From NCBI RefSeq assembly GCF_003334405.1, contig NZ_QOWM01000072.1: a stretch of 276 bases of DNA, one strand, 5' to 3'. The notes under the pieces are model-generated. The model had not been told where the DNA came from, ran no database searches, and saw nothing but the letters and a program-made list of their open reading frames with translations. Shown piece after piece: positions 1 to 199 of this stretch. The stretch is from Escherichia coli (GTDB lineage Bacteria; Pseudomonadota; Gammaproteobacteria; Enterobacterales; Enterobacteriaceae). Numbering within the stretch: position 1 is the stretch's first letter; each line of letters begins with the position of its first letter. The position numbers and the translations under genes are program-made.

Positions 1-28
1 GGGAACCTGCGGTTGGATCACCTCCTTA
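1..28 (+). rRNA. rrs: 16S (small subunit) ribosomal RNA, 3'-terminal 28 nt; the gene is truncated at the 5' side by the window edge
   Basis: Seen in sequence: GGGAACCTGCGGTTGGATCACCTCCTTA at 1-28 is the universally conserved bacterial 16S 3' terminus (helix 45 3' strand plus single-stranded tail), with the anti-Shine-Dalgarno core CCTCC at 21-25 and the mature end ...CCTCCTTA-3' at 28. Established knowledge: the E. coli 16S rRNA ends with this sequence. The specific operon (rrsA-H) cannot be assigned from 28 nt. Confidence 0.93.
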
Positions 29-199
29 CCTTAAAGAAGCGTACTTTGCAGTGCTCACACAGATTGTCTGATGAAAAGTGAATAGCAAGGCGTTTACGCG
101 TTGGGAGTGAGGCTGAAGAGAATAAGGCCGTTCGCTTTCTATTAATGAAAGCTCACCCTACACGAAAATATCACGCAACGCGTGATAAGCAATTTTCGT
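29..199 (+). other. 16S-23S internal transcribed spacer (ITS1), 5' portion, of the tRNA-Glu spacer type; transcribed and removed during processing, non-coding
   Basis: Seen in sequence: it lies between the 16S 3' end (28) and the tRNA 5' end (200), and has no long ORF. Established knowledge: enterobacterial rrn operons carry either tRNA-Glu or tRNA-Ile plus tRNA-Ala in this spacer. The spacer text (CCTTAAAGAAGCGTACTTTG...GCTGAAGAGAATAAGGCCGTTCGCTTTCTATTAATGAAAGCTCACCCTACACGAAAATATCACGCAACGCGTGATAAGCAATTTTCGT) matches my recollection of the E. coli tRNA-Glu type spacer; this was not verified by alignment. Confidence 0.85.

Follow-up and report, generated by a model that had tools for sequence, protein, structure and literature searches.

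Within an Escherichia coli ribosomal RNA operon, a spacer separates the 16S rRNA gene from the tRNA gene that follows it, and the locus analysed here raises the question of what role is played by the first bases of that spacer, immediately beyond the mature 3′ end of the 16S rRNA. The whole stretch of DNA under analysis (276 nucleotides; hereafter, the window) is of the E. coli rrnG type and consists of the 16S 3′ end (1–28), the spacer (29–199), and a tRNA-Glu gene (200–275), all on the plus strand. The entire window is 100% identical to rrnG of K-12 MG1655 (positions 2601–2876 of the K-12 rrnG locus, L001), where the matching copy sits downstream of clpB and is thereby identified as rrnG; the same full-length identity is found in many complete E. 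coli genomes. Positions 1–28 correspond to nt 1515–1542 of mature 16S rRNA, matching positions 1506–1533 of the 1533 in the Rfam SSU_rRNA_bacteria model, and include the anti-Shine-Dalgarno CCUCC (21–25). The RefSeq 16S annotation stops at L001 2628, equivalent to position 28 of the window. The tRNA-Glu(UUC) gene at 200–275 was identified with ARAGORN and with the Rfam tRNA model (60.1 bits, at 200–272), in agreement with the RefSeq annotation, and its presence makes the spacer one of the Glu-type rrn spacers; on the same strand, the 16S is followed by tRNA-Glu and then by the 23S.

The original prediction had assigned positions 29–75 to the 3′ strand of the 16S processing stem, quoting sequence that is indeed present at 29–73, and had singled out a lack of extended complementarity to the 16S leader of the same operon as the result that would speak against it. 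With the 250 nt that precede the mature 16S in K-12 rrnG taken as the leader, the best intermolecular duplex for 29–75 was formed between window positions 34–75 and leader positions −89 to −131, a helix of 40 bp (3 G-U) with an energy of −57.4 kcal/mol. Dinucleotide-preserving shuffles of the trailer against the same leader (n = 1000) had a mean of −25.2 kcal/mol (sd, 3.1; best, −39.1), and none was as good as the native duplex (z = −10.5). When a 47-nt segment was slid over the locus (16S, spacer, and the included portion of the 23S), the top three partners of the leader all overlapped window positions 27–93. The unconstrained minimum free energy (MFE) structure of the 1,893-nt pre-16S again paired 34–75 with −89 to −131, about 1,700 nt apart and in competition with all of the 16S. 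In cofolds of the leader and spacer, pair probabilities were at least 0.9 for 40–75 and 0.67–0.85 for 34–38.

Based on the duplex, the full-length MFE structure, the pair probabilities, and the conservation described below, positions 34–75 are almost certainly the trailer strand of the pre-16S leader-trailer helix (hLT), in its rrnG allele. The assignment of 29–75 to the processing stem thus stands for 34–75 and falls for 29–33, a single-stranded linker (CCUUA) from the mature 3′ end to the helix with leader pairing probabilities no higher than 0.17. The full-length MFE structure does pair 29–32 with 16S positions 1179–1182, though this pairing is probably spurious.

Several parts can be distinguished within the trailer strand. 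The 16S-proximal part of the helix (34–56) corresponds to nt 1548–1570, as delimited by a published truncation series (PMC10250234) and placed on the window by arithmetic (1542 = position 28). This part is interrupted at position 39, where, from the duplex pair list, an unpaired G lies in an internal loop opposite leader G−95 and A−94 (varying as G/A/C among relatives), and at position 49, a single-base bulge (C in rrnG) that is unpaired in both the duplex and the consensus and varies as C/U/A among operons and genera. From position 50 to 75 the duplex pair list gives an uninterrupted helix segment of 26 bp with leader −106 to −131. Within this segment, positions 54–61 are the complement of the GU-rich leader sequence TGTGTGGG at −117 to −110 (pairs 61 through 54), which is boxC. 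BoxC has been located in the 5′ strand of the hLT (PMC10250234). The leader boxA (TGCTCTTTAACAA) occurs at −144 to −132, upstream of the leader strand of the helix, and its numbering agrees with the published mutation U−141G (PMC10250234), as −141 is a U in the leader numbering computed here.

The original prediction also placed the RNase III cut a few tens of nucleotides beyond the mature 16S 3′ end, which is correct: three independent papers give the 17S precursor released by RNase III 5′ and 3′ extensions of 115 and 33 nt, respectively (PMC3985665, PMC8708148, bioRxiv 10.1101/2019.12.18.880849), and these ends have been detected by native RNA sequencing (bioRxiv 10.1101/2019.12.18.880849). 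With the mature end at position 28, these values place the cuts at window 61|62 (between +33 and +34, after 16S nt 1575) and leader −116|−115. On the computed helix, −115 pairs with position 59 and −117 with position 61, such that the published ends fall on the helix, directly opposed, and leave a 2-nt 3′ overhang. Such an overhang is characteristic of RNase III cleavage, and the computed structure is thereby internally consistent with the coordinates that others have measured. The 33-nt tail kept on the 17S pre-rRNA after the cut occupies positions 29–61 (PMC3985665; PMC10250234, discussion). In rnc mutants the precursor (17S*) carries 133 extra nt at the 5′ end and 49 at the 3′ end (PMC8708148); both ends fall 2 nt outside the helix (−131 paired with 75), as would be expected if single-stranded flanks were trimmed back to a stable duplex. 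That the 3′ end is finished by other nucleases, as had also been proposed, agrees with the published roles of YbeY and RNases II, R, and PH and PNPase (PMC3985665, PMC10250234), while RNases E and G mature the 5′ side (PMC3985665, PMC10250234). All of these published coordinates presumably apply to the rrnG allele.

The helix has been characterised by Warner, Bundschuh & Fredrick (2023; PMC10250234), using rrnB constructs for the mutagenesis and activity data, with the trailer defined as nt 1543–1589, exactly positions 29–75 of the window. Their E. coli hLT is from the same organism, at the same position (nt 1543–1589), with the same partner (−131 to −89, including boxC) and the same cuts (+33/−115), and there is no difference of substance between the two; the window holds the rrnG allele, which within the helix differs from rrnB only at position 49 (C versus U) and at 73–74. 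Replacing the trailer with a ribozyme that generates a near-mature 3′ end yielded 30S subunits without activity (PMC10250234). Truncation of the trailer to nt 1584 or 1589 (positions 70 and 75) was harmless, truncation to 1574 or 1579 cost about 75% of the activity, and truncation to 1569 (position 55) or less left zero activity, with the pairs between −113 to −89 and 1548–1570 being the most critical for active 30S (PMC10250234). Substitutions of four or six bases, whether in boxC or in the trailer bases opposite it, caused a 15- to 100-fold loss that compensatory double mutants restored (PMC10250234). [quoted passage not shown]

These results bear on the narrower framing of the original prediction, in which the helix forms but serves solely as an RNase III substrate. 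The account holds for the stem as a substrate, since the RNase III cuts map onto the helix with the correct geometry, but it needs an addition, as the pairing is essential for 30S while the cleavage is dispensable (PMC10250234). Beyond rnc itself being dispensable and the truncation effects in leader and trailer being the same in Δrnc (PMC10250234), 16S expressed with mature ends and without the helix yields no active subunits (PMC10250234, PMC11404451). A role confined to that of substrate is therefore highly improbable, and the reading of 34–75 as the trailer strand of a helix with a function in 30S biogenesis is preferred.

Each of the seven K-12 rRNA operons has the helix, with duplex energies from −56.6 to −57.4 kcal/mol. 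Among these operons the leaders are identical in the helix region and the trailers differ only at position 43, at position 49 (C/U/A), and from position 73 onward. It is very unlikely that the rrnG-specific features (C at 49, GA at 73–74, and a 171-nt spacer) tune stability or processing in an operon-specific manner, in which case precursors from different rrn operons would mature differently; the differences themselves are the sole observation in its favour, and the seven predicted duplex energies lie within 0.8 kcal/mol of one another.

Scanning species-representative genomes gave 69 loci, of which 28 included the 16S and its leader (two of these with a truncated trailer); as the scan pattern included spacer bases, only close relatives were returned, and many of the matches were short contigs without a leader. 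The resulting alignment contained 13 distinct combinations of leader and trailer, from Escherichia, Enterobacter, Citrobacter, Klebsiella, Kluyvera, Pseudenterobacter, and Phytobacter, for which RNAalifold predicted the same helix. Standard pairs filled 99.6% of the cells, compared to 33–49% when the 3′ partner was slid by one to three columns. A majority of the helix pairs (22 of 31) were invariant among the 13 operons, and six had one-sided exchanges that kept the pairing (G-C/G-U or A-U/G-U), such as a G-C/G-U swap at positions 54/55 facing an invariant leader GGG. The single compensatory change (A-U to G-C) occurred in Pseudenterobacter, where each strand has also lost one base. For these 13 close relatives (93% mean column identity; one compensatory pair), 30 of 500 shuffles scored at least as high in covariation as the alignment itself, and covariation is not claimed from this sample because the sequences are too closely related. 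Variable positions were enriched in unpaired columns as a trend only (5 of 10, compared to 8 of 37; p = 0.11). From position 76 onward the spacer diverges freely among operons, unlike the helix strand.

Covariation for the helix has been reported from an analysis of 1441 Enterobacteriaceae sequences, with instances in Yersinia, Serratia, Proteus, Xenorhabdus, and Pectobacterium (PMC10250234). The pairing of −99 to −96 with nt 1554–1557 (positions 40–43) had no covariation support in that analysis (PMC10250234), and the present alignment likewise lends it none; its predicted pair probability in E. coli is high, and one Citrobacter operon has, at this site (40–43 and −96 to −99), a leader of the E. 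coli type facing a trailer of the Enterobacter type. Two further departures from the common sequence were observed among the relatives. The Kluyvera ascorbata locus (L068) has an A for G at the equivalent of position 62, creating a C-A mismatch at the RNase III cut, and a G for A at position 71. In Enterobacter sp. EA-1 (L029, L032, L033), the CACACA run of the trailer is short of one CA, with the leader of L029 also lacking the facing TG. The 16S lengths in the EA-1 assembly range from 1533 to 1549 nt, and for this reason the CA and TG losses are probably assembly errors and not biology.

Some complementarity to the leader could arise by chance or composition, leaving 29–75 as a mere non-functional spacer between the 16S and the tRNA-Glu. 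Many segments do reach fairly low duplexfold energies (native 47-mers against the 250-nt leader; median, −28.6 kcal/mol), and one 16S region (nt 73–125, helix 6) reaches −52 kcal/mol by way of long interior loops around a 12-bp core. The duplex of 34–75 is, by contrast, near-continuous, with its 26 uninterrupted bp and the z-score given above, and no shuffle (n = 1000) came within 18 kcal/mol of it. Further, the helix survives competition in the full-length fold, and it is invariant or compatibly substituted in the 13 operons while the spacer from 76 is free to diverge. Together, the shuffle test and the published compensatory mutagenesis, which shows function (PMC10250234), refute chance as the explanation and leave it a negligible probability. 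The core of the helix 6 match is a 12-bp complementarity (one G-U) between L001 925–936 (leader approximately −162 to −151, in the boxB-region hairpin) and L001 1173–1185 (16S nt approximately 88–99); it is probably not meaningful, as a rough estimate gives about eight such cores expected by chance.

That 29–75 acts instead as a local element (a hairpin, a terminator, or a boxA-like antitermination site) and not by long-range pairing can be dismissed as having next to no likelihood, for although a weak local fold exists and rrn spacers contain a second boxA, the self-fold of the trailer amounts to only −6.4 kcal/mol compared to −57.4 kcal/mol for the duplex. Within 29–75, no match to boxA was found, even with three mismatches allowed, and no promoter-like or terminator-like site; no Rfam family matched 29–199 at E ≤ 1. 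Two open reading frames that overlap the segment (13–81 on the plus strand, 22 aa; 26–88 on the minus strand, 20 aa) are not credible, lying inside an rRNA operon.

Downstream of the helix, the spacer itself shows several features. The Glu-type spacer between 16S and tRNA in K-12 occurs in two forms, one of 171 nt (rrnB, rrnG, and the window) and one of 85 nt (rrnC and rrnE). The two share approximately the first 65 nt, as far as AAGGCGT (ending near position 93), and are unrelated from there to the tRNA (94–199 in the window; 1903–1987 in L074 and L076). Matches spanning at least 80% of the window were found in only 2791 of 5426 complete E. coli genomes, so the long form is polymorphic in E. 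coli. The two forms are reminiscent of the heterogeneity reported in the 1980s–90s under the name ‘ribosomal spacer loop’. The spacer from 76 to 199 folds at −35.8 kcal/mol (z = −2.7). A strong, near-palindromic hairpin occurs at 162–199 (CGAAAAUAUCACGC...GCGUGAU...AUUUUCG), ending one base before the start of the tRNA-Glu (200); it is present only in the long form, and the palindrome was flagged as terminator-like on the minus strand.

A different feature was observed in spacers of the Ile/Ala type (L072 1903–1970, L073, and L075 in K-12; also L003, L013, L019, L031, and L041), which carry GAGCAGT, or xAGCAGT, just past the helix. GAGCAGT can pair with ACTGCTC, which comprises the 5′ half of the leader boxA and 2 further nt. 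This pairing of spacer and boxA had energies of −8 to −12 kcal/mol and in several operons beat all or nearly all of 300 shuffles. The Glu-type spacers, including that of the window, are without this boxA complement. For the Glu-type spacers, an extension of the helix past position 75 onto boxA (78–87 with −134 to −144) was considered and rejected; cofold probabilities were 0.6–1.0, yet a fraction of 0.68–0.94 of shuffles did as well.

The same logic applies to the helix of the E. coli pre-23S, in which sequences flanking an rRNA pair, are cut by RNase III, and are needed for subunit assembly (Liiv & Remme 1998, as cited in PMC10250234). The pre-23S helix differs in that it flanks the 23S, lies outside the window, comprises about 27 bp, and persists in part as H1 of the mature 23S; its cleavage offsets are +3/+7 (5′) and +7–8 (3′) (PMC8708148, bioRxiv 10.1101/2019.12.18.880849), unlike the +115/+33 of the 16S. 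Extensive leader-trailer pairing that brackets the 16S has likewise been reported in every phylum of bacteria and archaea (Gemler et al. 2024; PMC11404451). The helices of other bacteria and archaea are highly diverse in sequence and detailed architecture, while the near-invariant 26-bp segment containing boxC is a feature of the Enterobacteriaceae.

In all likelihood, the trailer, on leaving RNA polymerase just past the 16S 3′ end, pairs with leader −131 to −89, about 1,700 nt upstream, in the boxC-containing region just downstream of boxA. The resulting helix of about 40 bp clamps the 5′ and 3′ ends of the pre-16S together, and published truncation and compensatory mutagenesis show that this pairing is required in vivo for active 30S, also in Δrnc. 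RNase III would then cut both strands (−116|−115 and window 61|62) to give a 17S pre-rRNA with a 33-nt 3′ tail, and the tail (29–61) would later be trimmed to position 28 by YbeY and/or RNases II, R, and PH and PNPase. The complementarity, its significance, the full-length fold, and the conservation come from the present analysis, while the literature supplies the sites of cleavage, the nucleases involved, and the evidence that the helix is essential.

Positions 34–75 are thus an already known element that had been identified correctly, not a new finding, and the value of the identification is one of correct annotation only. The processing stem of the E. coli 16S, as a substrate of RNase III, is reportedly due to Young & Steitz (1978), and its standing as a substrate has been textbook knowledge since 1978. 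Cells require the helix although in vitro it is dispensable, and the window offers nothing new on the reason for this difference. What the element means for E. coli has been known since 2023, namely that the hLT is essential for 30S biogenesis in vivo, independent of RNase III.
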